NCBI GenBank assembly: GCA_937898755.1
Contig: CALEJU010000010.1
Location: 515-64,514, forward strand
Direction of reading: 5' to 3'
DNA: 64,000 bases
From: an uncultured Acidobacteriota bacterium
GTDB taxonomy: Bacteria > Acidobacteriota > Terriglobia > Terriglobales > SCQP01
The translations under genes and the position numbers were made by a program. The number at the start of each line of letters is the position of its first letter. Position 1 is the first letter of the stretch. Positions 33,477-52,902 of the stretch are shown here, one piece after another. The notes under the pieces are model-generated. The model saw nothing but the letters and a program-made list of their open reading frames with translations, was not told the DNA's origin and did no database searches.

Positions 33477-33887
33477 ATGAAGCTGGCGCGTTTGATCTTT
33501 CTCGTCGCAGGTGTACTCGGAGTGATCGAGATCGTGCCGTTGTATCTGGAAGAGGCTGCGATGAACCGGCGGTTCCCGCCGGCGATCACCCATCCGGAGT
33601 ACTACTACGGCTTCATCGGCGTGACGCTGGCATGGCAGCTCGCCTTCCTGCTCATCAGTCGCGATCCGCTGCGCTACCGGCAACTGATGCCGATCGCGGT
33701 AGTGGAGAAGTTAAGCTATGTCGTGGCCATGATCGTTCTGGGGCTGATGAACCGCGTCGCCTCGACCACGGTCGTGGTCGGGATGCTGGACCTGGTGTGG
33801 GCGGTGTTGTTCTCGCTCGCCTACGTGCGCACGCGGGCGGAAACGGCAGTTGGGGGTGGGGCATGGGGTGCGGGGGGGCAGGCATAG
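33477..33887 (+). CDS. Integral membrane hypothetical protein (about 4 TM helices)
   Basis: 136 aa. GAGGTG lies 4 nt upstream. Hydrophobic helices throughout. Confidence 0.6.
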   Translation: MKLARLIFLVAGVLGVIEIVPLYLEEAAMNRRFPPAITHPEYYYGFIGVTLAWQLAFLLISRDPLRYRQLMPIAVVEKLSYVVAMIVLGLMNRVASTTVVVGMLDLVWAVLFSLAYVRTRAETAVGGGAWGAGGQA

Positions 33888-33948
33888 AACGCCGGTTGCC
33901 GTTCAAGGCAGCAACGCTGTCCTACAGGGCGCGAGGCGTGCCTTGGTC

Positions 33949-35166
33949 ATGACGACGTGTTCCAATCGAGCCGGAAGACAAGGGCCCCTGCCGTATGGTG
34001 TCTCCACTGCGCAGCCGCTGCAGTTGGTGCATCTGCATTCGCCTGCCGACGTGCGGCAATTGGCGCCGCTCGTGCATGAGCTATTGACACGGCTGGGACA
34101 GTTCCGCGACATCACCCTCGACCCGGAGTATTTTCTCCTCTCTTTGCCACCCCATTGGTCGGCGGAGGTGTTGGCCTTTTTTGACGGGACGACGTTGCAG
34201 GCGGTGCTCTACGGCCGGCGACGGAAGGTGGGCGGCTGGGGTACAGGCTTCCTGAATGGGGGCGACGCGGTCGGCGGCGGGTGCCTGGCGGGTGATCCGG
34301 CGGTGCTGCCCACCGTGGTGCGGCAAGCAGCGGACTATTACTTCAAAAAGCGCGTCCACGCCCTGCGCTGGAGTTTTGCCTTCTCCGCCGAGACAGTGGG
34401 CACGCCTGAAGCATTCACGCCGAAGGGAGTGTGTTGCAGGGTTGTCAACGTTCCACCGTGCGGTGAATGGCTGCCGCTCGCGCCGAACTATCCCGCATTT
34501 TTGCGCCGCTTGAGCAAGCTGATGCGCCGCAACTTCGTTTATTACCGCCGTCGCGCTGAAGCGGCGGGGTTCCGGTTCGACGCGCAGGTCCCGTTTGAGG
34601 AGTATGCCCACCGGATTCGACACCTCGGCGCCAGTCTGGGCTTTCCCGTGTCGGAGTGGCAACTGCAGAGCGCGGCCCGACTGATGACGCACTTTGGCGG
34701 CGGGTGGTGCGCCGGATTGCGCGGCCCGGACGGCTCCCTGGAGACGGCGCTGTGTGGATTCGGCCGCGACCACGTTTTCAACCTCCTCGGGCAGTTCACG
34801 AACCGGGCCGAGGCGCGGCGCAGCCTCGGTCTGGTATTACGCGGGCACCTGATCGAGTCGTTGATCGCCCGCGGCGACACCGATCTCCGTTATCTGCACG
34901 GCCTGAGTTTTCTCGAGCATCGCTACTGCACGCCGCATCCGCTGCTACGCCTCGATCTAGATCGTCCTCGCCCGCTGGCTACGCCGTTGAAATGGGTTTG
35001 TGCCCGTGTCGTCCAGGCGTTACCGCCGCGAAACCGCAGATGGGCGGACATCCTCGACGCGGTGGCGGGTAGCTATGGGAACACCGCTGCCGGCGACACA
35101 GGTTGCAGCGGGGGCAGTCAGACATGCCTCGCATGCCCCACGCCCCACGCCCCACTTTCCTGTTAA
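33949..35166 (+). CDS. Hypothetical protein, possibly a second CelD-like GNAT acyltransferase
   Basis: Start at ATG 33949. The block NYPAFLRRLSKLMRRNFVYYRRRAEAAGFRF resembles the linker of CelD/BioF2-like acetyltransferases. Confidence 0.45.
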   Translation: MTTCSNRAGRQGPLPYGVSTAQPLQLVHLHSPADVRQLAPLVHELLTRLGQFRDITLDPEYFLLSLPPHWSAEVLAFFDGTTLQAVLYGRRRKVGGWGTGFLNGGDAVGGGCLAGDPAVLPTVVRQAADYYFKKRVHALRWSFAFSAETVGTPEAFTPKGVCCRVVNVPPCGEWLPLAPNYPAFLRRLSKLMRRNFVYYRRRAEAAGFRFDAQVPFEEYAHRIRHLGASLGFPVSEWQLQSAARLMTHFGGGWCAGLRGPDGSLETALCGFGRDHVFNLLGQFTNRAEARRSLGLVLRGHLIESLIARGDTDLRYLHGLSFLEHRYCTPHPLLRLDLDRPRPLATPLKWVCARVVQALPPRNRRWADILDAVAGSYGNTAAGDTGCSGGSQTCLACPTPHAPLSC

Positions 35167-35201
35167 ACTGCCAGTCGGTCGTGCAGCAGCGGCCACCGCG
35201 T

Positions 35202-35289
35202 GCTGGAGTGGCGGAACTGGCAGACGCAGCAGACTCAAAATCTGCCGGAGCTTTGCTCCTTGGGGGTTCGATTCCCCCCTCCAGCACCA
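35202..35289 (+). tRNA. tRNA-Leu (anticodon CAA), CCA encoded
   Basis: Acceptor GCTGGAG/CTCCAGC, D-arm GCGGAACTGGCAGACGC, anticodon loop CTCAAAA, long variable arm CGGAGCTTTGCTCCTTG, T-arm GGGGGTTCGATTCCCCC, then A-CCA. Confidence 0.95.
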
Positions 35290-35622
35290 GCGCGACATCC
35301 CGCTTGCGGCGCCCTTCCAGCCGCCCTCCCAGGCGTCGCAGTGGCAATCCATGGCACTGGCCGTACGGTCCGGACTTTGGCGTGTCTGGGGGGTGACTCC
35401 CTTCTAACCTTCTTTATTGGTCATTGTAAATGTGCTAGTGTCTGTCAGTTTTTATACGCCTGAGTCCAATTCCGCCCGGCAGAAGTTTCATCTGAGGGAT
35501 GCTTCGCCGGGGTTGCCACGGAGTGTCTGGGCGAGTAGAAGCCTTGGTTCCGTCGGCGTTTCCCCCGCGCGCGGCGGGACGGCACTTTGCGCAGTGCTGC
35601 TTCAGTTTGGAGGCCCTTCGTC

Positions 35623-37485
35623 ATGCATCACATCGTTCGCGTGCTGCCCTGCGCGCTGGCCCTGAGTCTTGCGCTTGCCGGACAGGCCACGCCGGCTGCG
35701 ACGCCGCCCTCTGCCGGCGATACTCCGCAGTCCTCCGGGGCTCCGGTTTCGCCGTTGACCCAGGCGGCGACCTCGTCGTCGGCTGCCGCCGCGCCCGACA
35801 AGAACGGCAAGACCGGCAACGCCGCCCCAGCGCCGCGCGCCTTCACCACCGCCGCCAACGGCGAGTCGCGCACCCAGGACATCATCGAGATCAAGCTGGC
35901 CAACGACAGCGTGCAAATTACCGGTGCGCAACAGAGTTCCTTCCTGCGCAAGGGGCAGGACTCGCTGGCCGAGTTCAACTACTTCACCGATCACCCCTTC
36001 CGTGGCGACACGCGGGTGCAGGTGATCACCATGTTGCGCGGCACCGACGACCCGCACATCGACATCGAGCACAACAGCGTCCAGCGCGCCTCGCTGCGCT
36101 TCTTCAACCCGCGCCTGGACATGACGCTGGGCGATTCGCTGGTCAACTTCTCGCGCCTCTCCTACAACCAGTCGGTGCGCGGCTTGAACTTGGAGCGCCG
36201 CTTCGATCATGGGTTTAAGCTGGCGGCCACCGGGGGCGTCTTCACCGATCGCTGGGGTTCGTTGTTCCGCAACCTCATCACCAAGCCCTACACGCGCGTG
36301 GTGTACGGGGCGCGGGCCGAGCGCACGGTGGGACGGGGGCTGCTGGGCGTCAACTTTTCCGACGCCAGCGATGTGCGGCGTTCGCTGCCCGCCGAACAGG
36401 CCATCACGCCGCCCATCGGCAACCGCGTGGTGAGCACCGACGCGCGCTGGTCGCTGGGCCACCTGAACTTCCTCTCCGAGGCCGCCTACAGTTTCAGCAA
36501 CCCGGACAAGACGCTGTACCACCGCACCTTCGGGGACTACGGCGGCTACCTGGAGTCCAATTTCCACGTGGGAGACCTGCGGCTGCGCGGCTCGCTCACC
36601 CGCTACCAGCCGCTGTTCCTGGCGTTGAACGCCCGCCAGATCTCCGATCTGCAGGACGCCATCTTCGCCAGCACCTACGATCTGGGCAACAACATTACGG
36701 TGAACGGCTCGCTGCGGCGCAGCAACAATGATCTGCGCGGCCAGTTGCCGGCGGAACAGGTGCTCAGTTCGCCCGAGATCCGCCTCGATTTCCACGATTT
36801 CCATTTCCTGCACCGCTCTTCGGTGGAGGTCGGGTACCGCTACCGTGATTTGAGCAGCACGCGCATCCTGCCCACAGCCAGCGCCGCCAACCTGGCGCAC
36901 CGCAAGGTCGGCATTCCCTTTGCCGATCTCACCCTGCCGGTGCATACCACGCTGCTCTCGTTGCATTACGAGCACCGTTCGACCCACGACTTCATCAACT
37001 CCGACCAGACGGCGGGCACCGACAGCATCGGCGGCGGCTTCCGCGGGGTCTACAACTTCGGCAAGTGGACGGTCAACCCGCTGTTCCGCTACGACATCGA
37101 GCGCGACTTCTACAGTTTGTTCACCAACGCCAACAACAACCGCCTGGTCAACGGCTCACTGTTTATCGAGGCGCCCAAGTACTTCGTGTTCGAGGGTTTT
37201 TATCGGCGCCTGTCGGCCAGCACCTTCCAGAACTTCGACAACCCGCTGACGCCCGGCGCGCTGGTGCTGCTGGGCTCGGGGTACCTGCGGCCCAGCTATC
37301 GCGCGGCGCTGAGCTACAAGTTCCGCAACGACGACAACCGCGTCTTTCACGTCTCCTACGAACGCAACAACAACAATTTCATCGATCCCGTCAACCCGTT
37401 CGCCCCCCCCGGACCGGTGACCCTGCGCAACTTCAACGAGCGCGTCTTCGAGGTTGGCCTGCTCTACCGCATCAGCGTGTACTAA
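35623..37485 (+). CDS. Outer-membrane beta-barrel protein (uncharacterised)
   Basis: GGAGG lies 9 nt upstream. Signal peptide MHHIVRVLPCALALSLALAGQA and a low-complexity linker. Alternating beta-strand pattern, ending with aromatic ...LLYRISVY. Confidence 0.75.
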   Translation: MHHIVRVLPCALALSLALAGQATPAATPPSAGDTPQSSGAPVSPLTQAATSSSAAAAPDKNGKTGNAAPAPRAFTTAANGESRTQDIIEIKLANDSVQITGAQQSSFLRKGQDSLAEFNYFTDHPFRGDTRVQVITMLRGTDDPHIDIEHNSVQRASLRFFNPRLDMTLGDSLVNFSRLSYNQSVRGLNLERRFDHGFKLAATGGVFTDRWGSLFRNLITKPYTRVVYGARAERTVGRGLLGVNFSDASDVRRSLPAEQAITPPIGNRVVSTDARWSLGHLNFLSEAAYSFSNPDKTLYHRTFGDYGGYLESNFHVGDLRLRGSLTRYQPLFLALNARQISDLQDAIFASTYDLGNNITVNGSLRRSNNDLRGQLPAEQVLSSPEIRLDFHDFHFLHRSSVEVGYRYRDLSSTRILPTASAANLAHRKVGIPFADLTLPVHTTLLSLHYEHRSTHDFINSDQTAGTDSIGGGFRGVYNFGKWTVNPLFRYDIERDFYSLFTNANNNRLVNGSLFIEAPKYFVFEGFYRRLSASTFQNFDNPLTPGALVLLGSGYLRPSYRAALSYKFRNDDNRVFHVSYERNNNNFIDPVNPFAPPGPVTLRNFNERVFEVGLLYRISVY

Positions 37486-37488
37486 GCA

Positions 37489-40011
37489 ATGGCTGGAGGG
37501 GGACACAACTCGCGACAGCCGCCGCAGGGCGGCGCCACCGGTGGTCGGCAGCGACCGCCGCGCGCCCGGCTCGCGGCCCACTCGCGCTGGGTGTTCCACC
37601 ATGCCGGTTACGGCATCAGCCTGGTGGTCACACTGGCGGCGGTGGCGTTTTACGTGCACGGGTTGCGCGCCGCCAACCATCGAGGATTTTGGGACCGTCT
37701 CGAGTACCGTTCACTCGATGCGCGGTTCCTGTACCGCGCCCAGTTTTTCCCGCAGCGCCCGGCACCGCAGATCGTGCTGGTCACGGTGGACCAGGCGACG
37801 CTGGAAGCGGTGGGGGCGTGGCCGATCTCACGCCTGCACTATGCCCACGTGATTGACCGGCTGGCCGCCGCCGGGGCGCGCGTCATCGCCTTCGACATTG
37901 ATTTCGCCAAGCCGGATCCAGCCTCCGGACTGCAGGCGGTTCACGCCCTGGCCGGGGCACTTCCCGGCGATGCACCCCTGCAGCTGGCCGCGCAGCAGCT
38001 CAGCCGGCAGTTGGACACCGACAAGCAGCTGGCGGCGGCGATTGCGCGTCACGCCGACCGCGTGGTGCTGGGCTACACCTTCCTCGACGAGGCGGACAGC
38101 AAGGCGCAGGACGCGGCAGTGCGCCTGCAGAACGACACCTACCTGCTCGATCCGGTCTACAACCTGCACCCCGCCGGCGGGTTGAAGACGGCGCCGGCCG
38201 CAGCCTTCGCCACCGCGGTGGGCCACCGCCCGGAACTCTTCAAGCCGGGTGCGGAGATGAACTATCCCGTCATCTCGGAGGCCGCCGCGCGGCGGTTGGC
38301 GGGGTACTTCAACTACCTGCCCGACGTGGATGGGTCCTTCCGTCGCGCTCCCCTGGTGATGGGGCACAGTCCGGTCGTACCCGGATTCACCGAGGGCGAC
38401 GCCCTGACCCTCTATCCCTCCGAGGACGTGCAGATCTACAACCTGTACCAGTACCCGGCCGGGACTGATCCCGCCACCGTGGCGCCGCCGGATCTGTACA
38501 TCAACCCGGTCGGCGTTCAGTCCATCCGCTTCCGCAACGACGAGATCACGCCCGACCCGGACGGCACGCTGCTGATCAACTACCCCGGCCCGAAACAGAC
38601 GTATCCACATCTGTCGCTGGCCGCGGTCGAGGCGGGACACTTCCCGCCGCATGTCTTCGAGAACAAGATTGTACTGATCGGCGCCACGGCGCTGGGCATC
38701 GGCGACCTGCGCACCACGCCGGTTTCGACCGCCGCCGATTTCCCGGGGGTGGAGATCCACGCCGCGGTGCTCGGCAACTTGCTGCAACACAATTTCCTGC
38801 GGCACGGCTTCCAGGTCGAAATGGTTGACTTGGGCGTGCTGTTGCTCTTCGGTCTGGGTCTCGGGGCACTCTTCAGCCGCCTGTCACCGCTGCACGCCAC
38901 GCTGGCGTTCCTATGCACTGCCGCGGTGTTCACCGTGGCGGTGGTGGTGGCGTTCATCGCCGCCTCGGTGTGGTTGGCCTTCGTCCTGCCCGCCGCCACG
39001 TTGTTCGTCAATTTCGGCGCCGTGACCAGCTACCGCGTCGTTTTCGAGGACCGCGAAAAGCGGCGTGTGCGGCGCTCCTTTGGGCAGTACGTCGCCCCGG
39101 AAGTGGTGGAGCTGATTGAACGCGACCCGGAGCGCTTTCTGGCGGCGGGCGGCGAGACGCGCGAGCTGACGATTTTCTTCAGCGACATCCGCGGCTTCAC
39201 CGGACTCTCCGAGGGGTTGAGCCCGGAGGAACTGGTGACGGCGCTCAACGAGTACTTCGAGCGCATGACGGCGGCGCTCTTCCACCGCCAGGGCACGCTC
39301 GACAAGTACATCGGCGACGCCATCATGGCTTTTTGGGGCGCTCCCTCCCGGCAACCCGATCATGCGGTGAAGGCCTGCGCCGCCGCGCTCGAGATGCGGG
39401 CCGCGCTGGCCGAGTTGAATCGGGGCTTCCGCGGGCGCGGTCTGTCCGAGCTGGGCGTGGGCATCGGGCTCAACAGCGGCCCGGCGGTGGTCGGCAACAT
39501 GGGCTCCACGGTGCGCTTCAACTACACCGTGATGGGCGATGCGGTCAACCTTGCCTCGCGGCTGGAAGGCATGACCAAGCAGTACGGCGTGGCCATCCTC
39601 GTCAGCGAAGCGACGCGGCGCGCAGTGGGCGATCGCTTCGTGTTCCGCGAGTTGGACGTCATCCGGGTCAAGGGCAAGACGCAGCCGGTGCGGGTTTTCG
39701 AGTTGCTGGACTTCGTGCTGCATGAACGCCGCCAAGGTGCGGCACGACGCAAGGGGCCGGACCGCCGGCAGGGCCGCAGTCCGATTGCCGCCACGGCGCC
39801 GACTTACCCGCGCATGCTGCAACTTTATGAAGTGGCCTACGCGGCTTATGGGCAACGGGACTTCCGCACCGCGCATGCCCGCTTTGTCGAGCTGTTACGG
39901 GAATTTCCGCAGGACGGCCCCAGTCGATTGCTGGCGGACCGCTGCGCGCAGTTCCTCGTGGAGGAGCCCTCGCACGACTGGGACGGGGTGTATGTCATGC
40001 ACACCAAATGA
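37489..40011 (+). CDS. CHASE2-sensor class III adenylate cyclase
   Basis: 840 aa: TM helix, ~350-aa periplasmic domain, three TM helices, then the cyclase domain (FFSDIRGFTGLSE, DKYIGDAIMAFWGAP, GLNSGPAVVGNMGS, YTVMGDAVNLASRLE) and a helical tail. Confidence 0.9.
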   Translation: MAGGGHNSRQPPQGGATGGRQRPPRARLAAHSRWVFHHAGYGISLVVTLAAVAFYVHGLRAANHRGFWDRLEYRSLDARFLYRAQFFPQRPAPQIVLVTVDQATLEAVGAWPISRLHYAHVIDRLAAAGARVIAFDIDFAKPDPASGLQAVHALAGALPGDAPLQLAAQQLSRQLDTDKQLAAAIARHADRVVLGYTFLDEADSKAQDAAVRLQNDTYLLDPVYNLHPAGGLKTAPAAAFATAVGHRPELFKPGAEMNYPVISEAAARRLAGYFNYLPDVDGSFRRAPLVMGHSPVVPGFTEGDALTLYPSEDVQIYNLYQYPAGTDPATVAPPDLYINPVGVQSIRFRNDEITPDPDGTLLINYPGPKQTYPHLSLAAVEAGHFPPHVFENKIVLIGATALGIGDLRTTPVSTAADFPGVEIHAAVLGNLLQHNFLRHGFQVEMVDLGVLLLFGLGLGALFSRLSPLHATLAFLCTAAVFTVAVVVAFIAASVWLAFVLPAATLFVNFGAVTSYRVVFEDREKRRVRRSFGQYVAPEVVELIERDPERFLAAGGETRELTIFFSDIRGFTGLSEGLSPEELVTALNEYFERMTAALFHRQGTLDKYIGDAIMAFWGAPSRQPDHAVKACAAALEMRAALAELNRGFRGRGLSELGVGIGLNSGPAVVGNMGSTVRFNYTVMGDAVNLASRLEGMTKQYGVAILVSEATRRAVGDRFVFRELDVIRVKGKTQPVRVFELLDFVLHERRQGAARRKGPDRRQGRSPIAATAPTYPRMLQLYEVAYAAYGQRDFRTAHARFVELLREFPQDGPSRLLADRCAQFLVEEPSHDWDGVYVMHTK

Positions 40012-40028
40012 GAGGGGTGCGGCGTGCA

Positions 40029-40049
40029 GGCGGCCTAAACCGGGCCGCC
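40029..40049 (+). other. Intercistronic hairpin between the cyclase and the giant gene
   Basis: GGCGGCC-TAAACCG-GGCCGCC: a 7-bp GC stem with no T tract. Confidence 0.4.
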
Positions 40050-40121
40050 ACGGAATGGAGCAAGAGGGTTGAACGGTGGTGCGTCGCGGGTGCGGCTCAC
40101 CGGGCAAGGATCGAAGGATTG

Positions 40122-43100
40122 ATGCAGGAACGGAGCAAACTCATGGGTAACTGGGCGTTAGGATTGGACGGGAAGGCAGGGCTGGTACGCGCGCTGGGCG
40201 CCATGTCCGTTCTCGCGGTGGGCTTGATGGCGGCCGCGCCCGCGCCCACCGTGGCGGGCAAGGTCGGCGCCGTGCTGCCCAATGCCACCATCGCTCCGCA
40301 GCAGCCGACCGCGGCGATGCTCGCCAAGCTGCCCGCCGCCAAGAAGGGCGACTCCGTCTCCTACCAGCAGTACGTTGCCACGTCCAACAGCGGCCGCCTG
40401 CGTCTCGACATGGAGGACGGTTCGGTCCTCAACATCGGCAGTTCCGCTCTGGTCCGGGTTCTCCCCAGCAACACCGGTCGGCACGCCAGCGCGCTGCAAC
40501 TGGTTTACGGCAAGATCCGCGAGTACGGCAACGGCACGCACAACGGGCAGCAGATCACGACCCCCACGGCCGTGGCCGGGGTGATCGGCACCGACGTCTT
40601 TCTCGACGCCTCACCCTTTAACTCCTCGATCACCGTGCTCTCCGGTACGGTAACCGTGTCGAGCAGCAATCCCGGAATCGGTGGCGGTGTCACGCTCACC
40701 GCCGGCGAGCATGCGGATGTGGGCGCCAACAGGGCCCCCCTGAAACGGCCGGCCACGCCACAGGAAGTGCAGCAGGCGTTGCAGTCCACCGACCCGCTGG
40801 CCTTGGAATTTAACGTTCCGGACAGCCTGAAGCCGGGTGCACCGCCGCAGTCAGGTTACGTCCAAGGCAAGGGGGTGGAGCAGATAGATCCCGCCGCCAG
40901 CTCGATCGAAGGCGCCGGCATGCTGCTCAAACTACAGCCTCTGCAGGGACAGCGGTTGACGTTCACCTTGCAGGCGCTCACCCAAGCGGTGCATGGCGCT
41001 CACGCCGTGCATTTCCGGACCAGGAGCGGCGAGAACATTGACACTTCGGTGCTGGTCAGCAGCTTGAACCCGCCGACGGCCCAGCCCGGCCCGGCGCTGA
41101 GCGTCACCCAGGGGGCGCCCGCCACCTTCAATGGCGCCAAATCCTCCAGCCCGAACGGGGCCATTGCCTCCTACGACTGGTTGTTGCGCGGCGTCGGTCA
41201 GCTCAGCCGCGGGGACACCTTTGTCGTCAATACCGGCGGCATAGAACCCGGAACCTACGATGTGCAATTGACCGTGGTGGATGCCGCGGGGATGACAGCC
41301 ACGGCAGTCACCAAGCTCACCATCACGCGCGCCACCCAGGCGCCGGTCGCCAAGTTCCAGATTCCCAGCAAGGTGATGCAGGGCTCGTTGCTCATGCTCG
41401 ATGCATCCGCTTCGCAAGCACGCGACGGCGCCTCGCTGCGTTCCTATTCGTGGAGCAGTCCTGATTTTGCGTTGAGCGCCAGCGGCGCGACCGTGCAGGT
41501 GAATACGTCGAACCTGTACGTCGGAACCACGTACAACATCCGCTTGGAAGTGACCGACTCCAACGGCGTGGTCAGCTCCCTGACACTGCCCGTCGTCCTG
41601 AGTCCGGCGGCCCTACCCGTCGCGGCGCCGGGACAGGCACAGCGCGTGACGGCGGGCACGACCGCCACCTTTGATGGCAGCCAGTCCACGGCTTCCAGCG
41701 GACGGATCACCACTTACAGTTGGAGGCTGGACCCGCCGCCGGGGCAGCAGTTCAACGGCAGCCCCACTGTCCTCGTCGGGGACCGTCCCAGCTTCAGTAT
41801 CGACACCACCGCACTGTCGCCCGGCGATTACACCCTCACGTTGGTCGTCACCGATGCCGCCGGACAGACCGGCACGGCCGCCACCAAGCTCACGGTCATG
41901 CCCGGAGCCAGCAGCAGCGGCACCCCGCAGGACGTCGTCCAGACGCTCGGGAACGCCTATCAGGCCCTGAATTCCAGTCAGTTCTTGTCGCACTTCTCCA
42001 GCGGTCAATCCGGCTACGACCCTTTCCCAAGCTACGAGGCGCTGGCCGAAAACTTCAAGTCCTCCTTCAGTCAGCTGCAGTCCGCCACGGTCAACATCCA
42101 GATCGCCAACGTGCAAACCCAGGGCAACTACGCGACGGTGTTCGCCAACTGGACCATCAACTACACCTTTAAAGCCAACGGCGCGACGGGTTCACTGAAA
42201 GAAAATCTGACTATCCGCCTGGAGAATGTCGCAGGCGGCGGCTGGTTGATCACCGACTTCCAGGGCTCGACCGGCAAGGTGGGCACCAACAGCGGCGGCC
42301 AACTGCAACTGGGCAAGACGCCAGCGTCCGCCGTGGCCAACTTCACACTGTCCGGCTTTACCGCCGCGGCCGCGGTCGCTTCCGGAGCAACGGCGACGGT
42401 GAGTGTGACGGCCAGCAACAATGGCAGCGGCGACGCGGCGGCCTCGAAAATCGCGCTCACCCTGCAGGGCGTCGACGCGCCGGTGGGCACCATTCCAGTT
42501 CCCCCGCTGGCGCATGGCGCGTCGGCCGCCCTGACGGGGACGTTCCAGGCACCGGCCACGGTCTCCGGTGCAAACCTGACGCTGGTGGCCACCATCAACG
42601 CCGATCGCTCTGTGTCCGAGTCGAACTTTGACGACGACACGGCGAAGACCACCATTACGGTCGGTCTTCCCGATCTGAGCGTCAGCGCCGTCACTGCGCC
42701 GAATAACGTTCTGCTGCCCGGCGTCCCGGGCACGCTCACCGCCACGGTCGCCAACGGCGGCCTGATCGCGAGCGCTCCCACCACGTTGGTGGCAACACTG
42801 GGAGCGGCAGCGGTGCAAATCGGGACAGGGGCGGTGCCCAACGTCAATCCCGGGCAGAGCGTTCAGGTTACGATTCCGGTCAATACGCCGGCCAACCTCA
42901 GCGGCCCGCAACCGATTGCCGTTACCGTCAACCCAACCCACGCCTTGGCCGAGTCTTCTTACGCCAACAACACCTTTACGGGAACGATCATTGCCGGGCA
43001 GCCCGATCTGGTGGTGGGCACGAGTTCGGTCATTCCAAACCCGCTCGTCGCAGGCACGCCGGGCACACTCGCCGTGGTGGTCACCAACCAAGGTACGGCG

Positions 43101-46100
43101 CCCTCGGCGGCGACCACGCTCATCGCGACCGGGGATGTTTCCGGTACCCAGAATGTTCCGGTCATCAACGCCGGGCAGAGCGCCACGGTGAACATCTCCT
43201 TCACGACGCCGGAGGAGGGCACCTACAACGTCAACCTGGCGATAACTGCGGATCCCAACGAGAGCAACAAGACCAACAATACCGGCAAGGCCAGCTTCCA
43301 AGTCGGTGCGCCGGACTACATCGTGCAGAGCGCGGGTTTGCTGCAGAACGGCAGCCCGGTCACGCAGGTGCACCCCGGCGATTCCTTCAATACGACGATC
43401 ACCCTCGCCGATATCGGCCAGAGCGATCCGGCAGCCGCCGGCACGGTGGCCGTGCATGTCGCGGTCAGTGGACCGCAGGGGCAGGTGTACTCCAACGACT
43501 TCAATTCGGCGCTGCCCACCCTCACGCATCCTGTCACGAACGTGAGCGCCGCGGTTGCGCTGGGGCCGAACGCCGTACCCGGCTCCTACACCGCGACCGT
43601 GACGGTGAACCCGGGCGGCGCGGTGCACGAAAGCAGTACCGCCAACAACACCCTCCAGTTCAGTTTCACGATCCTGAAGCAGGCGGACTACGTGGTGCAG
43701 AGCGCCAACCTGACCGTGGGCGGCAGCGTTGCCTCGCTTCTGCATCTGGGCGACACGCCGACGCTCAACTTCACGGTTGCCAATCAAGGTCAGACCGACC
43801 CCCCGGCGGGCGCCAAGCTCACGGTGGCTTACGCGGTGGCAGGACCCGGCAAAAATCTGCCCAGCGGCACCGTCAGCATCGCGGCTCCGACGCTTGCTCA
43901 GGCGACCCCCGCGAGCGTCACCTTCAACCCGTTGGGTCAGGACGCAACTCCCGGCACCTACACCATCACGGTGACCGCCAATAGCGATGGCGCGTTACCT
44001 GACGGCAACCCCGGCAACAACACCTTCCAGTTCCAAATCACGGTGGCCGGCGTGCCGGACTATGTCGTGCAGACGGCCAATGTTGCGGTCAACGGCAGCG
44101 CGGTCTCGCTCCTGCATGTGGGCGACTCCCCGGTGCTGAACTTCACCCTGGCCGATATCGGAATGTCCGATCCCCCGGCCGGTTCCGCGGTGACCGTCAC
44201 CTTCAGCGTCGCCGGACCGGGCAAGAACTCACCTACGGGCACGCAAAAGGTCCCCGCTCCTACCCGGACTCAGACAAGCACCGGCAGCTTCCCGCTGGGA
44301 ACGCTCGACAGTCAGGCCACGCCCGGCACCTACACCATCACCGTTACAGTGAACGGCGATGGGGCGCTGCCGGACGCCAATCCGGGCAACAACACCTTCC
44401 AGGTCCAAGTCACCATCGCCGGTGCCGCCGACTACATCGTGCAGAGCGCCAACGCCTCGCTCAACGGCTCGGTTACCAACGTGTTGCACGCCAACGACGC
44501 ACCGACCCTCAACTTCACGCTTTCCAACATCGGCCAAGTGGATCCGCCGGCGGGCACCATGATCGCCGTGGCTTACGCCGTTACTGGGCCGGGCCAAAAC
44601 CTGCCCTCGGGGACGACGCAGGTTGCAGCTCCGACGCAGGCACAGCCGACGGGCGGCAGCTTTGCCGTTCCATCGATCGGTCCCAATCCCACGCCAGGCA
44701 CTTACACGGTGACGGTGACGGTCAATCCGGATCACGCCGTTCCGGAAGGGAATTTCAACAACGACAGTCGGCAGTTCCAGATCACTGTGGCCGGGGTGGC
44801 AGATTATACGGTGCCGGCAGCGGGCTTGCTGGTCAACGGCACCCTGGTCTCCCCAGCCACCGTGGCTTCCGGTACAACGGTTCAAATCGGTTTCGTCGTA
44901 ACAAATCTCGGATCAGGCGATCCGCCCCGCGGCGCCCAGATTTTAGTGAGTTACACCGACAGTCTGAACAACAAGCAGACTCAGACAGTCTTCGCACCCA
45001 TCCATTCTCAAAACTCATCCGGGAGTTTCACACTGCAGATTCCGGCCACGGCTGCCGCCGGAACGGTGGTGACCGGCACCATTACGGTGAACAGCGATGG
45101 AGCCCTGCCTGAGTCCAACCCCGCCAATGATTCGGCCCCGTTTACGCTGAACATTGCCACTGCGGCGCCATTCAGCGTCATCGGTCCGGGCGGGACGGCA
45201 CCCGCACTGGTTGCCGCGACCACGTTCTCGAACACCGAAAACCAAACGAGCGTGGTCGTCGGCTATACGGCGTCCGCCACCACCTTGGAAAATGCCACGC
45301 TGAGCATCCAGAACAACAGCCCGCTCGCCATCAGCTTCGATAGCAGCGGAAACGTCATCTCAACGACGAATCCCACGCAGCGCATCCTCGTCGACAGCAG
45401 CAATGGCGCTCCTGCGGGGAACTACAGCTTTACGGTTTCCGGCAAAACCGCCTCGGGACTGAATCTTGTGCCGGTGCAGGTCAACGTCATGGTGGTGGAT
45501 GTGACGCTGGCGCCGGTCACCACACCCGTGCAGGTGCTGCGCAATGACAGCAATGGCGTCAGTTTCCCGCTGACGTTTAATGGGTATTTCCCGTGCGCCG
45601 TGGCGTTCCCAGGTAACCTTGGGGGCGGGCTCACCGGAGTGTTTGTCTTTGAGCCCGGGATTGGGGCTGCAGGCCGCCAGCGTCCCACCGCGCGCCCGGA
45701 ACTGACTTCCAGTGCAGGCGTTTGTACGGGATTCCAGCCCAACGCTGCCGTGAAGCTGCAGGCGCAGGCCTTCGATGTGAATCCGGTCCTCCAGACCGCG
45801 ACGCTTCAAGTGTCGGTGGCTGGGCTCCGCTCGACAAAATCCTTCACCCTGCCGGTCAACGTCTATGACTTCCTATTGACGGCCACCCCCGCCAGTCAGG
45901 CCAATCATCGCCTGAGCCTGACCATCGGAACGCCCACGACAATTACGCTCGCGCTGGTTCCCATCAACACCAGCCAGACGCTGACCGCCAACCTGACGCT
46001 GACCCCGACCGTCTTGTCTGCAGATCCCTCGGTCGTAAAGCTCTCCAGTGTGCCGGCCACCATCAGCAGCGGTACGCCGGTGACCTATCAAGTCACCACC

Positions 46101-48677
46101 ACCGCCGTGGTTGGATTGCAGGTGCGGGCCCAGGCCGTTCTAGGGGCGACCACCCCATCACCCTTCCGCTTCAACGACACCTACTTCAGCACCACCGGGG
46201 CCAACTCCGATCTGGCGCTGACGTCGGTCACGTTTCAACGGGATCTCAACGCCGCACCCGCGGTCATCGGCGAACAGACGACTGCCACCCTCAACATCAC
46301 CAACAACGGAACTGCAGCCACCCCCACACGCCTGATCAACGGCAATTCAATCATCGGCTCGGTGCAGATCGCTCTGGGTGGGCGTCCGCTGATCGCCTAC
46401 TACCTGATCAACACCTTGCAGCCGCAGCAGACGGCTGCGGTGGCACTGCCGTTCTTCATCCCCGACTTCGGCTTGGCCGGTTCCCAAGCGTTGAGTTTTA
46501 CCTTCACTCCCATCGATGGCGCGGTCGACCTGACCACCTCGGACAAGATCCTGTCGCAGAACATCTCCATCGTCGACTGGGGGGTGGCGATCAACGGCGG
46601 TGGCCCCGGCTCCTCGGCCGGCAACCCGCTCCCGGTGGCGCAGGGCGCAACGGTCAACGTTCCGCTCCTGTTCACCAACAGCGCGAATACGAAGCTGGAT
46701 CCAACGGTGAATCCCGTCGTGGTGAGTGGCAGTCAGCCCACCACTGGACTTTCCGTCACCGTGCCTGCCGGAACTCTGAACAGCACGTCGGTCAACGTTC
46801 CTGTCGCGGTCACCGCGGGGGTGAATGACGGACTTTATGTGCTCAACCTCGATGTCGCGATGAACAAAGGGCGGGTGGCGAGCAGCACGTCTCTTGGCGG
46901 AGGGGCGGAGTTGGCCCGCTCCAGCTTGGACACTTCGGGCGGCTTCTTTGGCGACACCGTTCGCAAGGCGGTGGTCTATCTGCAGGTCGGCGCCACACCG
47001 GGTCTCAAGGTGAGCCTGACCAGCAGTCCGAGCGGGACCGCAGCCAACCCCATTCAGGTTGATGGCCCGCAGCAGATCCCCCTGGGCATCACGCCGACGC
47101 GGCAGGACGGCAAGACCACCGGAACCGTAGATCTTGATGTGCAGGGGAGTTCGCAGTTCGGGACGCTGCAAAGCGGTCAAGTCGTCGCCGATCAGAATAT
47201 CTCCGCCATCCCTTACGGTACGGTGACCACGGTTCAGGTCGGCGCGGCGGTGGACTACAGCGGCAATAGTGCCGTGCCGGTCGGACCTGCCAGCCTGACC
47301 GTAGTGGCGCACTCGCCGCAGGGGCAGGCCGGGCGCGGACGCCGCGAAAGCGGAGCGGCCGCTTCGGGTGGGACGCCCTCCAACACCCTGCAGGTCTTCT
47401 TCAACGTGGGCGACTTGAACGTCGCTTTTTCGCCGTCCGCCTCGGGCGGGTACAACTTCCCGGTGGGGGGCACGCAGACCATCTCGGTGACCACCTCGGC
47501 GGTCAGCGGCTTTAAGACGGTGCCGTTGATCCTGTCTTGGGAGCTGCCGGCCGGCGTGACGATTGACCAGAACGACGTCACGCTGAGCTCCGTCAACGCC
47601 ACCACAACGTTCAAGATGAGCTATATCGGGCCGGCCGGCGGCGGCCACTCGCTGCTCTTCCTGAACGTCTTCGTGCCCTTCAACGCCAGCATCGCCAACC
47701 AGAGCTTCTACAAGTTCTACGTGGTTCCGGTGACGCTGGGCAGCAGCGCCGCCGGCCTGGGCGGCGGTGGGCTCTCCACCGCCGCCGCGGGCGGCGACGG
47801 CCTGCGCGGCCGCTGGGCGCGCGGCGTTCCGCGCTCTTTGGGAAGCGGCAGGGGAATTGCCGCGCCGACACGCACGCAACCCTTGCGCCTGACCGTGCAG
47901 GGGCACGACATCACATTGCATCCCGCCAACCCGCGTCCGGGCGACCCGGTGCGGGTGCGGGTGCCGGTCATGAACGATGGCGACACCATAGCGCGTGACG
48001 TTCCCGTCGAACTCACCCTCAGCGGCCAGCCGCTGGCCTCGACCACGGTGACCGTGCGGGCCCACGGCATGAGCGTGGCCGAACTCGAGTGGACGATCCC
48101 CATCGCACAGCAGGCGGCCTTCGGTGAACGGCTGCGCGTGCAGGTGGATCGCGACAACCGGCTCACCCCGGCCAGTCCCGCGAAAAGTGCGGCCGTGGAT
48201 TTGCAACTCGGCGAAGACGGCGGACCCGCCGTGCGCGGCCGCGGGCCGCAACAGCGGCAGCGCGGCACCCTGGCCTTCCCGGCGGAAACCTGCGCTGGCT
48301 ACCGGTTCGCTTTTGCCGGCGAAACGGCCTGCGGGTCGGCGGATGCAGAGTTCATGGCCGCCGGTGGCCACGTCAGCGTCGAAGGGCGCGACGGTATCGC
48401 CGATCTCGGGTTCGCCGACTTGGGTAACCCGCCCGCCGTGCCGTCCACCGGCTTTGTGAGCACACCGCAAATGTTGCAGGTGGGTCACGTGTACGCGGTG
48501 CGGGTGCGCAGCGCGACAGTGCTCGTCCGCGTCGTTTCCGTGCACAACCCCGACGCCGAACGCGAGGTTCGCGAAAAGGTCTTCGGGCGTGGCCATAACC
48601 CGCTCGACCACGCCCCCGTTCCGCATACACTGCAAGGCGGAGCGCCGGTGACGGTGACGCTGGAATGGCTGCAATAG
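40122..48677 (+). CDS. Giant secreted/surface protein: signal-anchor, FecR domain, 3 PKD-like, NTF2-like module, ~9 CARDB-like repeats, further Ig-like region, terminal CARDB and unknown C-terminal domain
   Basis: Single open frame to 48677. Start candidates are ATG 40008 (ATGA overlap with the cyclase stop), ATG 40122 and ATG 40143 (GGAG 7 nt upstream). The FecR pattern is RLRLDMEDGSVLNIGSSALVRVL...VIGTDVFLDAS...LSGTVTVSS. The CARDB pattern is PDLxV...N.G...A...ESNxxNN. Confidence 0.85.
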   Translation: MQERSKLMGNWALGLDGKAGLVRALGAMSVLAVGLMAAAPAPTVAGKVGAVLPNATIAPQQPTAAMLAKLPAAKKGDSVSYQQYVATSNSGRLRLDMEDGSVLNIGSSALVRVLPSNTGRHASALQLVYGKIREYGNGTHNGQQITTPTAVAGVIGTDVFLDASPFNSSITVLSGTVTVSSSNPGIGGGVTLTAGEHADVGANRAPLKRPATPQEVQQALQSTDPLALEFNVPDSLKPGAPPQSGYVQGKGVEQIDPAASSIEGAGMLLKLQPLQGQRLTFTLQALTQAVHGAHAVHFRTRSGENIDTSVLVSSLNPPTAQPGPALSVTQGAPATFNGAKSSSPNGAIASYDWLLRGVGQLSRGDTFVVNTGGIEPGTYDVQLTVVDAAGMTATAVTKLTITRATQAPVAKFQIPSKVMQGSLLMLDASASQARDGASLRSYSWSSPDFALSASGATVQVNTSNLYVGTTYNIRLEVTDSNGVVSSLTLPVVLSPAALPVAAPGQAQRVTAGTTATFDGSQSTASSGRITTYSWRLDPPPGQQFNGSPTVLVGDRPSFSIDTTALSPGDYTLTLVVTDAAGQTGTAATKLTVMPGASSSGTPQDVVQTLGNAYQALNSSQFLSHFSSGQSGYDPFPSYEALAENFKSSFSQLQSATVNIQIANVQTQGNYATVFANWTINYTFKANGATGSLKENLTIRLENVAGGGWLITDFQGSTGKVGTNSGGQLQLGKTPASAVANFTLSGFTAAAAVASGATATVSVTASNNGSGDAAASKIALTLQGVDAPVGTIPVPPLAHGASAALTGTFQAPATVSGANLTLVATINADRSVSESNFDDDTAKTTITVGLPDLSVSAVTAPNNVLLPGVPGTLTATVANGGLIASAPTTLVATLGAAAVQIGTGAVPNVNPGQSVQVTIPVNTPANLSGPQPIAVTVNPTHALAESSYANNTFTGTIIAGQPDLVVGTSSVIPNPLVAGTPGTLAVVVTNQGTAPSAATTLIATGDVSGTQNVPVINAGQSATVNISFTTPEEGTYNVNLAITADPNESNKTNNTGKASFQVGAPDYIVQSAGLLQNGSPVTQVHPGDSFNTTITLADIGQSDPAAAGTVAVHVAVSGPQGQVYSNDFNSALPTLTHPVTNVSAAVALGPNAVPGSYTATVTVNPGGAVHESSTANNTLQFSFTILKQADYVVQSANLTVGGSVASLLHLGDTPTLNFTVANQGQTDPPAGAKLTVAYAVAGPGKNLPSGTVSIAAPTLAQATPASVTFNPLGQDATPGTYTITVTANSDGALPDGNPGNNTFQFQITVAGVPDYVVQTANVAVNGSAVSLLHVGDSPVLNFTLADIGMSDPPAGSAVTVTFSVAGPGKNSPTGTQKVPAPTRTQTSTGSFPLGTLDSQATPGTYTITVTVNGDGALPDANPGNNTFQVQVTIAGAADYIVQSANASLNGSVTNVLHANDAPTLNFTLSNIGQVDPPAGTMIAVAYAVTGPGQNLPSGTTQVAAPTQAQPTGGSFAVPSIGPNPTPGTYTVTVTVNPDHAVPEGNFNNDSRQFQITVAGVADYTVPAAGLLVNGTLVSPATVASGTTVQIGFVVTNLGSGDPPRGAQILVSYTDSLNNKQTQTVFAPIHSQNSSGSFTLQIPATAAAGTVVTGTITVNSDGALPESNPANDSAPFTLNIATAAPFSVIGPGGTAPALVAATTFSNTENQTSVVVGYTASATTLENATLSIQNNSPLAISFDSSGNVISTTNPTQRILVDSSNGAPAGNYSFTVSGKTASGLNLVPVQVNVMVVDVTLAPVTTPVQVLRNDSNGVSFPLTFNGYFPCAVAFPGNLGGGLTGVFVFEPGIGAAGRQRPTARPELTSSAGVCTGFQPNAAVKLQAQAFDVNPVLQTATLQVSVAGLRSTKSFTLPVNVYDFLLTATPASQANHRLSLTIGTPTTITLALVPINTSQTLTANLTLTPTVLSADPSVVKLSSVPATISSGTPVTYQVTTTAVVGLQVRAQAVLGATTPSPFRFNDTYFSTTGANSDLALTSVTFQRDLNAAPAVIGEQTTATLNITNNGTAATPTRLINGNSIIGSVQIALGGRPLIAYYLINTLQPQQTAAVALPFFIPDFGLAGSQALSFTFTPIDGAVDLTTSDKILSQNISIVDWGVAINGGGPGSSAGNPLPVAQGATVNVPLLFTNSANTKLDPTVNPVVVSGSQPTTGLSVTVPAGTLNSTSVNVPVAVTAGVNDGLYVLNLDVAMNKGRVASSTSLGGGAELARSSLDTSGGFFGDTVRKAVVYLQVGATPGLKVSLTSSPSGTAANPIQVDGPQQIPLGITPTRQDGKTTGTVDLDVQGSSQFGTLQSGQVVADQNISAIPYGTVTTVQVGAAVDYSGNSAVPVGPASLTVVAHSPQGQAGRGRRESGAAASGGTPSNTLQVFFNVGDLNVAFSPSASGGYNFPVGGTQTISVTTSAVSGFKTVPLILSWELPAGVTIDQNDVTLSSVNATTTFKMSYIGPAGGGHSLLFLNVFVPFNASIANQSFYKFYVVPVTLGSSAAGLGGGGLSTAAAGGDGLRGRWARGVPRSLGSGRGIAAPTRTQPLRLTVQGHDITLHPANPRPGDPVRVRVPVMNDGDTIARDVPVELTLSGQPLASTTVTVRAHGMSVAELEWTIPIAQQAAFGERLRVQVDRDNRLTPASPAKSAAVDLQLGEDGGPAVRGRGPQQRQRGTLAFPAETCAGYRFAFAGETACGSADAEFMAAGGHVSVEGRDGIADLGFADLGNPPAVPSTGFVSTPQMLQVGHVYAVRVRSATVLVRVVSVHNPDAEREVREKVFGRGHNPLDHAPVPHTLQGGAPVTVTLEWLQ
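43314..45173 (+). repeat. Five in-frame tandem repeats of exactly 372 bp (124 aa) inside the giant gene
   Basis: The (P/A)DY(I/V/T)V codon block recurs at 43314, 43686, 44058, 44430 and 44802. Conserved segments include TPGTYT(I/V)TVT and NPGNNTFQ. Confidence 0.85.
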
Positions 48678-48745
48678 AGGACAGGACGGGTGAGGAGCGG
48701 TGAGGACGGTGGCGGTCCGGTACACTGAATTCGTGTGGAGGTGAT

Positions 48746-49213
48746 ATGCGCCTATCGCGTGCGTTTTCTGCTGTCCTGCTGGTGACCTTGGCGCTGGCCG
48801 TCGCCGCCCCGGCGCAGCACCGCAAGAATCCGGATGTTGACGCGCCCGGTGGGGTGGGTCCCGCGCAGGCCGCCGACAGCGTCTTCTCGTTGCTCAAGGA
48901 CGGGCTCGAAGGACACATCAAACGCCTTTTCATGTCCGCCTTTGACCAGGACATGCCGGCCTACGATGAGTTTGACGATCAGATCGAGAAGCTATTCCGC
49001 GAGGTGCAGGTCTTCCGTGTCCAGTTCCGCGTACTGCAGAGCGAGATGCAGGATCGCTCGGGCGTCTTGTTGGTGCAGGTGGACCTCGATGAGAGCGGCT
49101 CGACCGCCCCACGCCGCGCCACGGAAGAGGTCAAGCTGAATCTGGTACTGACCAAGAAGGGCTGGCGCATCTCCGACCTCGAACCGCGCACCTTGTTCCT
49201 GCCGCCGCGCTAG
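48746..49213 (+). CDS. Small secreted protein, NTF2-like by eye; resembles an internal module of the giant protein
   Basis: GGAGGTG lies 2 nt upstream. Signal peptide MRLSRAFSAVLLVTLALAVAAPAQ. 155 aa. Confidence 0.65.
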   Translation: MRLSRAFSAVLLVTLALAVAAPAQHRKNPDVDAPGGVGPAQAADSVFSLLKDGLEGHIKRLFMSAFDQDMPAYDEFDDQIEKLFREVQVFRVQFRVLQSEMQDRSGVLLVQVDLDESGSTAPRRATEEVKLNLVLTKKGWRISDLEPRTLFLPPR

Positions 49214-51829: not shown

Positions 51830-51927
51830 GCGGCTTCTCCCGATTCGGCGTAGCAGCGCCGGAGCACTAGTTTAACGCGAGACGACGCGGCCTCTTCGGC
51901 TCCAGCGCTGCCGCCGCGCAGCCACCG

Positions 51928-52902
51928 TCATCCCGCCACCGTTCCCCGCTTCGTGGTCAGGACTTCTTCGGGCAGGATGAAACGCACGTTCTCGGTGATC
52001 TCGCCGGTCTGTTCGACGTGCGTAAAGCCAAAGCGGCTACGCAGGGCGGCGACCACGTCCTGCACCAGCGACTCGGGAGCGGAGGCGCCGGCGGTCAGGC
52101 CGACACGATGCACGCCTTCCAACCAGGTCGGACGGATGTCGTCGGCGTTGTCAATCAGGTAGCCGGGCACCCCGGCGTTTTCCGCCACCTCGACCAGGCG
52201 CAGCGAGTTCGAGCTGTTTTCCGAGCCCACGACGAGAACCAGATCAACCGTGGGGGCGGTCAGCTTGAGCGCCGTCTGGCGGTTCTGCGTGGCGTAGCAG
52301 ATGTCCTGGGCCTTGGGCGCGGCGACGGCGGGGAAGCGCTCCCGCAGCCGGCGGATGATGTCGGCCGTCTCGTCCAGGCTCAGGGTGGTCTGCGTGAGGT
52401 AGGCGACGCGCTCTGGGTCGGGGAATTCGAGCGCCTCGACCTGCTCCAACGTCTCGACCACCGGCGTGCCCTCCGGCACCTCGCCCAGCAAGCCGATGAT
52501 CTCATCGTGATGGCGGTGGCCGATGATTACCAGACTGTAACCGCGCTTGATGTAATCGCGAGCCTCGACATGGACCTTGCTGACCAGCGGGCAGGTGGCG
52601 TCAATCACCTGCAGCCCGCGGGCCCGGGCCGCGTCCCACATCTGCGGGGCGACACCGTGGGCGCTGAAGAAGACGCGGGCGTCCACCGGCACCGCGTCGA
52701 GCGAGGGCACGAAGATGGCGCCACGCTCTTCCAGGCCGCGGATCACGGTGCGGTTGTGGACGATCTCCTTGAGGACATAGATGGGCGCGCCGAATTGCGC
52801 CAATGCTTCCTCGACCGCTTCGACCGCCCGCACCACGCCGGCGCAGAACCCCCGGGGCTGCAGCACAAAGACCGTTTTGGCGTCGGGTGAGGCGGCGGGC
52901 AT
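51928..52902 (-). CDS. ispH: 4-hydroxy-3-methylbut-2-enyl diphosphate reductase
   Basis: 324 aa with GFCAGVVRAVE, EIVHNRTV, ATCPLVSKVH and SSNSLRL motifs. Confidence 0.95.
   Translation of the reverse strand: MPAASPDAKTVFVLQPRGFCAGVVRAVEAVEEALAQFGAPIYVLKEIVHNRTVIRGLEERGAIFVPSLDAVPVDARVFFSAHGVAPQMWDAARARGLQVIDATCPLVSKVHVEARDYIKRGYSLVIIGHRHHDEIIGLLGEVPEGTPVVETLEQVEALEFPDPERVAYLTQTTLSLDETADIIRRLRERFPAVAAPKAQDICYATQNRQTALKLTAPTVDLVLVVGSENSSNSLRLVEVAENAGVPGYLIDNADDIRPTWLEGVHRVGLTAGASAPESLVQDVVAALRSRFGFTHVEQTGEITENVRFILPEEVLTTKRGTVAG

Follow-up and report, generated by a model that had tools for sequence, protein, structure and literature searches.

The DNA analysed here is a 64,000-nt stretch from an uncultured Acidobacteriota bacterium (the window, to which all coordinates refer). 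It contains a gene for a giant protein of 2,844 aa in which a FecR domain, three PKD units, an NTF2-like module and a long series of CARDB units precede a C-terminal domain without an assigned family. The giant gene is the third member of a four-gene cassette, whose order is a gene for a 620-aa barrel-like protein, a gene for a cyclase with a CHASE2 sensor domain, the giant gene and a gene for a small NTF2-like paralog (Table 1). An earlier description of the giant protein, made from the nucleotide letters alone (the sequence-only reading), did not include this gene context, in which the upstream CHASE2 cyclase and probable barrel and the downstream NTF2-like paralog provide the main functional clue. 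Amino acids are numbered throughout from nt 40008, so that the ATG at 40143 corresponds to M46.

Table 1. Features of the giant gene and its cassette in the 64,000-nt window.
Feature	Coordinates	Strand	Remarks
Partner gene 1, 620-aa secreted protein	35623..37485	+	no Pfam, NCBIfam or PDB match
Partner gene 2, CHASE2 and class III adenylate/guanylate cyclase	37489..40011	+	840 aa
Giant gene	40143..48677	+	2,844 aa from the conserved start; open reading frame open from 40008
Sec-type signal peptide	40143..40256	+	aa 46-83; predicted from hydrophobic segment and homolog N-termini
FecR domain with family-conserved flanks	40263..40877	+	aa 86-290; Pfam and homolog alignment
Three PKD units	41070..41897	+	aa 355-438, ~449-540, 542-630
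NTF2-like (SnoaL-like) module	41925..42287	+	aa 640-760; likely, from sub-threshold profile and family alignment
Three CARDB units of ~110 aa each	42333..43310	+	aa 776-1101; Pfam E 6e-11, 2e-9, 1e-13
Five tandem 124-aa CARDB-like units	43311..45173	+	aa 1102-1722; each opens xDY[IVT]V
Lineage-specific orphan stretch	45174..46397	+	aa 1723-2130; Thr/Ala/Val-rich
Family-conserved pre-C-terminal module	46398..47843	+	aa 2131-2612; without Pfam family
Terminal CARDB domain	47883..48161	+	aa ~2626-2718; Pfam E 6e-7 (aa 2628-2718)
Family-defining C-terminal domain	48252..48674	+	aa 2749-2889 (141 aa)
Partner gene 3, 155-aa secreted NTF2-like protein	48746..49213	+	free-standing paralog of the giant's NTF2-like module

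Structure of the giant gene and its product

The sequence-only reading had drawn its domain map along one frame, and a single open reading frame (ORF) without an internal stop indeed runs from 40008 to 48677 on the + strand, with every motif that had been quoted found in its place. The GC content at third codon positions (GC3) lay between 0.73 and 0.89 in each 600-nt segment of this ORF, including the part without family assignment. Since GC3 was of the coding type in all segments, the ORF looks coding over its whole length. Long antisense ORFs, such as one of 792 aa at 46347..48725 on the - strand, are the usual by-product of high GC, which amounts to 65% in the window. An identical product (P0001; NCBI MHB8734514.1, 2,844 aa), entitled 'MAG: CARDB domain-containing protein [Terriglobales bacterium]', is recorded on two contigs and in several sources, and Tandem Repeats Finder detected no DNA-level tandem repeat in the giant gene that assembly could have collapsed. 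The frameshift or assembly error that had been considered as a threat to the single frame was therefore not borne out by the uniform GC3, the identical record and the lack of tandem repeats.

Three ATG codons, at 40008, 40122 and 40143, are candidate starts. The sequence-only reading had placed the start at 40122; the database copy begins at ATG 40143. The relative L044, whose FecR region shares 88% identity with that of the giant, retains ATG 40143 as well as the GGAACGGAG box that precedes it by 7 nt; it has no ATG where 40122 would be and differs by indels that are not multiples of three between the cyclase stop codon and ~40115. Starts 40008 and 40122 were rejected because of the missing ATG at 40122 and the frame-breaking indels upstream. 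The conservation and indel pattern in L044, together with cyclase-giant gaps of 100-240 nt in homolog loci, places the start of the gene at ATG 40143 on comparative grounds.

Residues 59-77 form the sole strongly hydrophobic segment of the giant protein, and 29 of 29 homologs open with a canonical Sec signal peptide (M-K/R, an h-region and AxA followed by APAP). The signal peptide region contains no Cys and hence no lipobox. This points to a cleavable, non-lipidated Sec signal peptide beginning at M46, which is probably cleaved between TVA and GK. The helix that had been described as a signal or anchor is thus retained as a signal; a role as an anchor is not supported, given the canonical signal peptides of the 29 homologs.

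The assignments of the FecR domain, the three PKD units and the CARDB repeats were upheld by Pfam scores above the gathering cutoffs. The FecR core (PF04773; aa 123-215, nt 40374-40652) scored 38.6 bits against a cutoff of 24 and covered positions 3-96 of the 97 in the model. The giant's FecR region is 36-44% identical to that of 30 homologs. Nowhere is the family better conserved than in this head, where alignment columns average 64% identity and the motif TPTAVAGVIGT is invariant; a PDB search with the region returned nothing useful. PKD_4 (PF18911) matched three stretches with 84.5 bits against a cutoff of 27, K319L-like_PKD likewise matched in three stretches, and the PKD units were 29-41% identical to one another in a self-BLAST comparison. 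No Pfam family was found on aa 1-120 or 225-360.

The NTF2-like module that follows is a likely assignment, based on profile and alignment evidence. SnoaL_3 covered 109 of its 121 positions (9-117) at aa 648-754 with E 0.0012 and 19.6 bits, just under its cutoff of 22; DUF4440 and SnoaL_2 matched more weakly, all three being weak matches to families of the same clan. A profile match was obtained in only 2 of 17 family members and a PDB profile search with the module found nothing; by alignment, the module is present in 30 of 30 homologs, with E-values down to 7e-24. The NTF2-like character that had been proposed for this region is likely; its description as an insert is not supported, given its presence in all 30 aligning homologs and the existence of the downstream paralog.

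In the stalk, Pfam CARDB (PF07705; gathering cutoff 22.7 bits per unit) matched eight stretches with a total of 175 bits, and the units start at about aa 776, 888, 999, 1102, 1226, 1350, 1474 and 1598. The 124-aa units are 37-62% identical to one another (self-BLAST) and gave E-values of 3e-6 to 0.024 when compared singly with CARDB, the last of them scoring best as Ig_VWA7. Taken singly, the units at aa 776, 888, 999, 1102 and 1226 exceeded the CARDB cutoff, and those at aa 1350, 1474 and 1598 reached 15.3-20.5 bits. With the terminal CARDB domain, nine units in all pass or approach the threshold. A Pfam Lysyl_oxidase match within this array (44694-44789, aa 1563-1594; 32.6 bits against 20.4) was rejected because no more than 32 of the 204 positions in the model are covered; the match reappears weakly at the ends of other 124-aa units and is probably a common strand motif rather than an oxidase domain.

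The sequence-only reading had found no recognisable motifs in about 2.6 kb after the CARDB array, and no Pfam family was detected on aa 1723-2600 either, apart from a sub-threshold CARDB-like unit. This weak, degenerate unit (aa ~2077-2150; self-BLAST and Pfam) lies across the end of the orphan stretch, and the last 480 aa proved to be conserved in the family, so that the region is less featureless than described. When aa 1723-2600 were compared exhaustively (phmmer) with 1.84 billion representative proteins, the sole match was the protein itself, and a word-indexed search found nothing, the identical database copy being missed as well. Remote relatives of this region were reached only through a locally built family profile. 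This profile was made from the 480 aa before the terminal CARDB domain in 29 family members, with the query left out; it matched aa 2131-2612 with E 2e-32 and 109 bits, compared to none of 2,000 shuffled decoys, and gave no match on aa 1723-2130. By these profile comparisons lineage-specific sequence is limited to aa 1723-2130, an orphan stretch that is presumably built of β-sandwich modules.

Two short stretches in this part of the protein had been singled out before. The basic stretch QGQAGRGRRESG (47319-47354), suggested as a processing site, aligns to a variable inter-domain linker, and the family alignment revealed no conserved dibasic site there; a processing site is thus not supported. 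The Gly/Arg-rich stretch (47754-47855) is present as described and contains a family-conserved G-x-W-x-R/K motif.

The additional CARDB unit noted near the C-terminus was corroborated. It passes the 22.7-bit cutoff and aligns in 29 family members, and its AlphaFold2 (AF2) model resembles the CARDB structures 3idu, 2kl6, 2kut and 2l0d (Foldseek probability 1.0, TMt 0.56-0.68). A first AF2 model, which comprised the terminal CARDB and the C-terminal domain, returned CARDB matches only. The C-terminal domain aligned in 24-29 homologs and carries two invariant Cys residues, an invariant GH-x-Y-x-V motif and QR and D-x-G motifs; the Cys pair would fit a disulfide, as expected for an extracytoplasmic domain. 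Modelled from a 21-sequence alignment, it was predicted to consist of ~9 strands and one helix with a mean AF2 confidence (pLDDT) of 85.4 and a predicted TM-score (pTM) of 0.75. Foldseek found no match to this model in the PDB (best E 0.56, TM-score at most 0.24) and none in BFVD, Pfam had nothing on aa 2700-2889, and a PDB sequence search with the C-terminal region retrieved only the CARDB structure 2kut and nothing for the C-terminal domain. As a predicted structure it is thus confidently modelled and has no recognised relative in Pfam, the PDB or BFVD, in agreement with the lack of an assigned family in the sequence-only reading.

Searches for known sorting signals also agreed with that reading, which had seen no PEP-CTERM, LPXTG, type IX secretion system (T9SS) or autotransporter terminus. 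Pfam and NCBIfam models detected no T9SS C-terminal domain (CTD), PEP-CTERM, autotransporter β-domain or repeats-in-toxin/type I secretion (RTX/T1SS) signal in the giant protein, and a motif scan found no LP.[TSA]G, PEP motif, C-terminal transmembrane helix or GGxGxD repeat. A match of NCBIfam PorU_rel_Nterm to the CARDB-like repeats (72 bits against a cutoff of 450) and matches of LipL45 and Lsa33, far under their cutoffs, were rejected.

Partner genes and conservation of the cassette

The 840-aa product of the gene directly upstream of the giant contains a CHASE2 domain at aa 56-456 (Pfam E 2.5e-53) and a Guanylate_cyc domain at aa 557-733 (2.7e-26). CHASE2 lies between two hydrophobic regions (helices at about aa 41-59 and 445-490), and because these transmembrane helices flank it, it faces the periplasm. 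The cyclase is 42% identical to its orthologue in one of the homologous loci (L001). As far as we judge by eye, its catalytic domain retains residues typical of active class III adenylate cyclases, namely the metal-binding Asp residues and the Lys/Asp pair that determines substrate specificity.

The 620-aa protein encoded by the first gene has a signal-peptide-like N-terminus, no further hydrophobic helix and 23 homologs, none of which is annotated. Searches of Pfam, NCBIfam and PDB with it gave no match, the best being Porin_4 with E 0.05 in one homolog, and a tblastn search of plasmids, including rhizobial megaplasmids, was likewise without a match. Amphipathic segments of period two make up 13.2% of the protein compared to 8.0±2.3% in shuffled versions, a value reached by 8 of 500 shuffles, and the C-terminus of its family is aromatic (...VYRF-like). 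These features make it a probable outer-membrane β-barrel.

The 155-aa product of the last gene also starts with a signal-peptide-like N-terminus and shares 40-43% identity with the ORFs that follow the giants of L001 and L004. Hhalign related it to the NTF2 module of the giant family with a probability of 97% (E 1e-10, 86 columns), and a KGW-x-I-x-DF motif ends both the small protein and the giant's NTF2-like module.

The same order of the four genes is found in L001, L005 and L006 at 35-42% identity. A survey of GTDB genomes, seeded with the 620-aa protein and scanned with hidden Markov models built from sequences of this analysis, yielded 36 loci, all in Acidobacteriota metagenome-assembled genomes (MAGs), mostly of Terriglobales/Terriglobia. 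The cyclase gene comes next after the 620-aa gene in 26 of these loci, and a FecR giant follows the cyclase in all 18 that have sequence beyond it; in L034 the 620-aa gene stands by itself. A metagenome survey seeded independently with the FecR head produced 80 loci. Of these, 24 have the full barrel-cyclase-giant arrangement, 3 have cyclase and giant and break off upstream of them, and 3 have barrel and giant only; in a further 24 the FecR ORF is short or truncated and its family uncertain, and in 20 the sequence upstream is too short for a judgement. The small paralog comes after the giant in 13 of 25 loci.

Approximately 30 homologs of the giant protein, of 1.6-4.3 thousand aa, were compared, and stop-to-stop ORFs at further loci are as short as ~1.2 thousand aa. 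They share the order signal peptide, FecR, PKD-like, NTF2-like, variable CARDB stalk, pre-terminal module, CARDB and C-terminal domain, with a stalk whose length differs ~3-fold between members. Family members were found here only in Acidobacteriota, again mostly in Terriglobales/Terriglobia MAGs. No name for the family was found in Pfam, NCBIfam or the literature searched, and literature searches on CARDB with FecR and on CHASE2 with Acidobacteria returned nothing relevant. On alignment evidence, the giant is a member of an uncharacterised family with a constant head (FecR domain, small β domain, PKD units and NTF2-like module), a variable stalk, which in the giant comprises the 8 CARDB units and ~400 aa of β-rich orphan sequence, a constant tail (480-aa module, G-x-W-x-R/K motif and terminal CARDB) and a novel C-terminal domain. 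Two relatives have the giant gene broken up into two or three ORFs (L005/L008, 14332-21860; L020, 14410-19251), for which frameshifts, pseudogenisation or assembly errors could be responsible.

Relation to known FecR-CHASE2 systems and possible function

The nearest characterised analogue is the NsrA/CyaK system of Sinorhizobium meliloti, whose outer-membrane protein NsrA is reported to mediate, and to be required for, the perception of signals by CHASE2 cyclases (PMC7529298, PMC13001267). In an S. meliloti replicon we identified as NsrA, by size, position and published description, a 1,209-aa ORF that lies directly upstream of a CHASE2 cyclase gene and comprises a FecR domain (aa 85-179), TPR repeats and a C-terminus like that of outer-membrane proteins. 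Its FecR domain is 30% identical to that of the giant (pairwise E 1e-6); an hhalign comparison of this ORF with the 620-aa protein was negative. Both systems have a gene for a secreted FecR protein adjoining a CHASE2-Guanylate_cyc gene, as observed in the 18 testable genomes and 27 metagenome loci of our surveys, and the outer-membrane part of the NsrA system would have its counterpart in the putative barrel of the acidobacterial cassette. The giant is not a FecR-TPR-barrel fusion, however: NsrA unites the three parts in one protein and is encoded upstream of its cyclase, whereas the giant is encoded downstream, lacks TPR and barrel, and has instead more than 2,500 aa of PKD, NTF2-like, CARDB and novel modules, the putative acidobacterial barrel being the product of a separate, unrelated gene.

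Further cases of this linkage have been described. A LysM-FecR protein is encoded beside a CHASE2 histidine kinase in the 'BiofilmReg' operon of Burkholderia (PMC5192318), and CHASE2-cyclase clusters of Campylobacterota include a FecR outer-membrane protein (PMC9239204). As in the acidobacterial cassette, a gene for a signal-peptide-bearing FecR protein adjoins the gene for a CHASE2 sensor; the FecR proteins of these two groups are small, however, lacking Ig-like arrays and the giant's C-terminal domain, and they are accompanied by other output domains and accessory genes, namely a histidine kinase with a response regulator, a phosphodiesterase and a TPR protein. FecR-type anti-sigma factors such as E. 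coli FecR and Pseudomonas PupR also have a periplasmic Pfam FecR domain in common with the giant. Such a function was rejected for the giant protein because it has no anti-sigma domain, no transmembrane anchor past the signal peptide and no FecR_C/DUF4974, and the cassette contains no gene for an extracytoplasmic function (ECF) sigma factor or a TonB-dependent transducer.

On the side of the stalk, intimin/invasin and LapA-type adhesins combine a periplasmic N-terminal module, a long Ig-like array and a distinct distal C-terminal domain, and the periplasmic end of LapA is read by an inner-membrane signalling protein. The giant is likened to these adhesins by general-knowledge analogy only; unlike inverse autotransporters and LapA, it has no fused intimin-type barrel, LysM, RTX/T1SS signal or LapG site. 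The fold of the terminal CARDB domain matches CARDB cell-surface proteins, e.g. Pyrococcus PF1109 and Methanosarcina MA_4588. CARDB modules are β-sandwiches of general use, and this likeness leaves the conserved head, the tail and the gene context unexplained.

Because of the linkage in the cassette, the conserved FecR head and the NsrA precedent, we favour the interpretation, with about an even chance of its being right, that the giant is an extracytoplasmic co-sensor or 'antenna' of the upstream CHASE2 adenylate cyclase rather than a stand-alone adhesin. As a co-sensor, it would dock with its FecR head on the periplasmic CHASE2 domain, while a target in the envelope or outside the cell would be bound or probed by the variable Ig-like stalk and the constant tail. 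Attachment to, or passage through, the outer membrane would be the task of the upstream barrel-like protein, and events at the tail would be turned into cytoplasmic cyclic AMP (cAMP).

Several observations count against a co-sensor. To our knowledge, a contact between FecR and CHASE2 has been shown by no experiment or structure in any system. A chain of at least 20 Ig-like modules is far longer than the width of the periplasm, and the giant contains no known outer-membrane export signal. The barrel fold of the 620-aa protein is statistically weak (the 8 of 500 shuffles given above), with no similarity to the NsrA barrel, and no gene for a Crp-type cAMP receptor was found among the scanned genes of the window. 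In L032 and L035 of the GTDB survey, and also in L002 (barrel-like gene and giant at 5941-16136), the 620-aa gene is followed directly by the giant without a cyclase, and six clear giants of the metagenome survey have neither partner upstream. These cyclase-less giants imply that the giant is not strictly dependent on the cyclase. As cyclase-less loci retain the barrel-giant pairing, they suggest that barrel and giant form the core pair and that the cyclase is its usual output module.

The giant might instead be a secreted or surface-exposed adhesin, matrix or S-layer-like protein whose production or release is regulated by the cyclase, or which is merely co-transcribed with it. PKD and CARDB arrays that vary in copy number are characteristic of adhesins and surface proteins, the family spreads in length over ~1.2-4.3 thousand aa, some giants occur without a cyclase, and the NCBI name is just 'CARDB domain-containing protein'. 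It is, however, the FecR head with its TPTAVAGVIGT motif that is best conserved; FecR is a transduction or interaction module that recurs beside CHASE2 sensors in unrelated phyla, and the cyclase-then-giant order holds in 18 of 18 testable genomes. We thus consider a plain adhesin possible but unlikely; if this were its function, the finding would be an ordinary one, adding one more giant repeat protein.

The Sec signal peptide and the lack of a recognisable outer-membrane translocation or sorting signal would also suit a wholly periplasmic scaffold, which would link the cyclase, through FecR, to the barrel, through the C-terminal domain, and monitor the state of the envelope without ever reaching the cell surface. 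The linkage of the barrel gene to the giant where the cyclase is absent and the co-encoded small secreted NTF2-like paralog are in line with such a bridge. From general knowledge, however, at least 20 extended β-sandwich modules would exceed the typical periplasm width several-fold, and a ~3-fold variation in stalk length fits a bridge of fixed distance poorly, which makes the scaffold a clearly improbable alternative. That the giant ORF is an artefact of mis-assembly, fusion, pseudogenisation or spurious high-GC reading, as the GC-rich window, the antisense ORFs and the gene split in two at one homolog locus might suggest, is hardly conceivable given coding-type GC3 over 8.6 kb, the identical product on two contigs, the end-to-end architecture repeated in ~30 homologs and the lack of collapsible repeats.

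Returning to the co-sensor, a more specific and rather speculative form of it, which we regard as improbable, is an undescribed outside-in device in which the barrel would either thread the giant through the outer membrane or tether it there, and mechanical load on, or binding to, the stalk would be read directly as cAMP. Export or anchoring would then follow a new, two-partner-like route that relies on the C-terminal domain described here or on the tail with the G-x-W-x-R/K motif, and the stalk would project tens of nanometres while the FecR head stayed in the periplasm on CHASE2. Such a device would provide a protein 'ligand' and a mechanism for CHASE2, a widespread bacterial sensor domain for which the recurring FecR-protein partner is the best lead. 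The Pfam description lists the CHASE2 ligand as unknown (quoted in PMC5192318), and in the papers we found a FecR partner of CHASE2 was tested genetically only in Sinorhizobium (NsrA). As the acidobacterial cassette splits the FecR partner from the barrel, the pairs of head and CHASE2 and of C-terminal domain and barrel are separately testable.

Each of the recognised domains is ordinary, and the linkage of FecR with CHASE2 has precedent. New are a cassette confined, as seen here, to Acidobacteriota, a giant modular FecR partner, three unannotated families and a C-terminal domain without a match. The three families, namely the 141-aa C-terminal domain, the 480-aa pre-terminal module and the 620-aa barrel-like protein, lend themselves to Pfam-type curation, and for the Terriglobia, a group of bacteria abundant in soil, the cassette indicates a signalling route.

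Genomic surroundings

The flanks at 49964-52902 (- strand) and 56917-58560 (+ strand) encode housekeeping proteins, i.e. a DXS-like transketolase-family enzyme, LytB/IspH, GroEL, an M1 peptidase and TrmO, and DinB is also among the neighbours of the cassette. GC content is uniform around the cassette; this uniformity and the housekeeping flanks give no indication of a mobile island. A scan for promoters and terminators detected no more than expected by chance. Upstream, a tRNA-Leu(CAA) gene (35202-35289, + strand) ends ~330 nt before the first gene of the cassette; the 1.6 kb at 33885-35538 otherwise contains no ORF with coding-like GC3, and a 438-aa ORF at 33850..35166 had no family match. 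In two of the homologous loci, genes of the Crp family (cNMP_binding/HTH_Crp_2) lie 4-8 kb from the cassette (L001, 21991-22627; L005, 5236-5985) and are possible cAMP receptors of the system.

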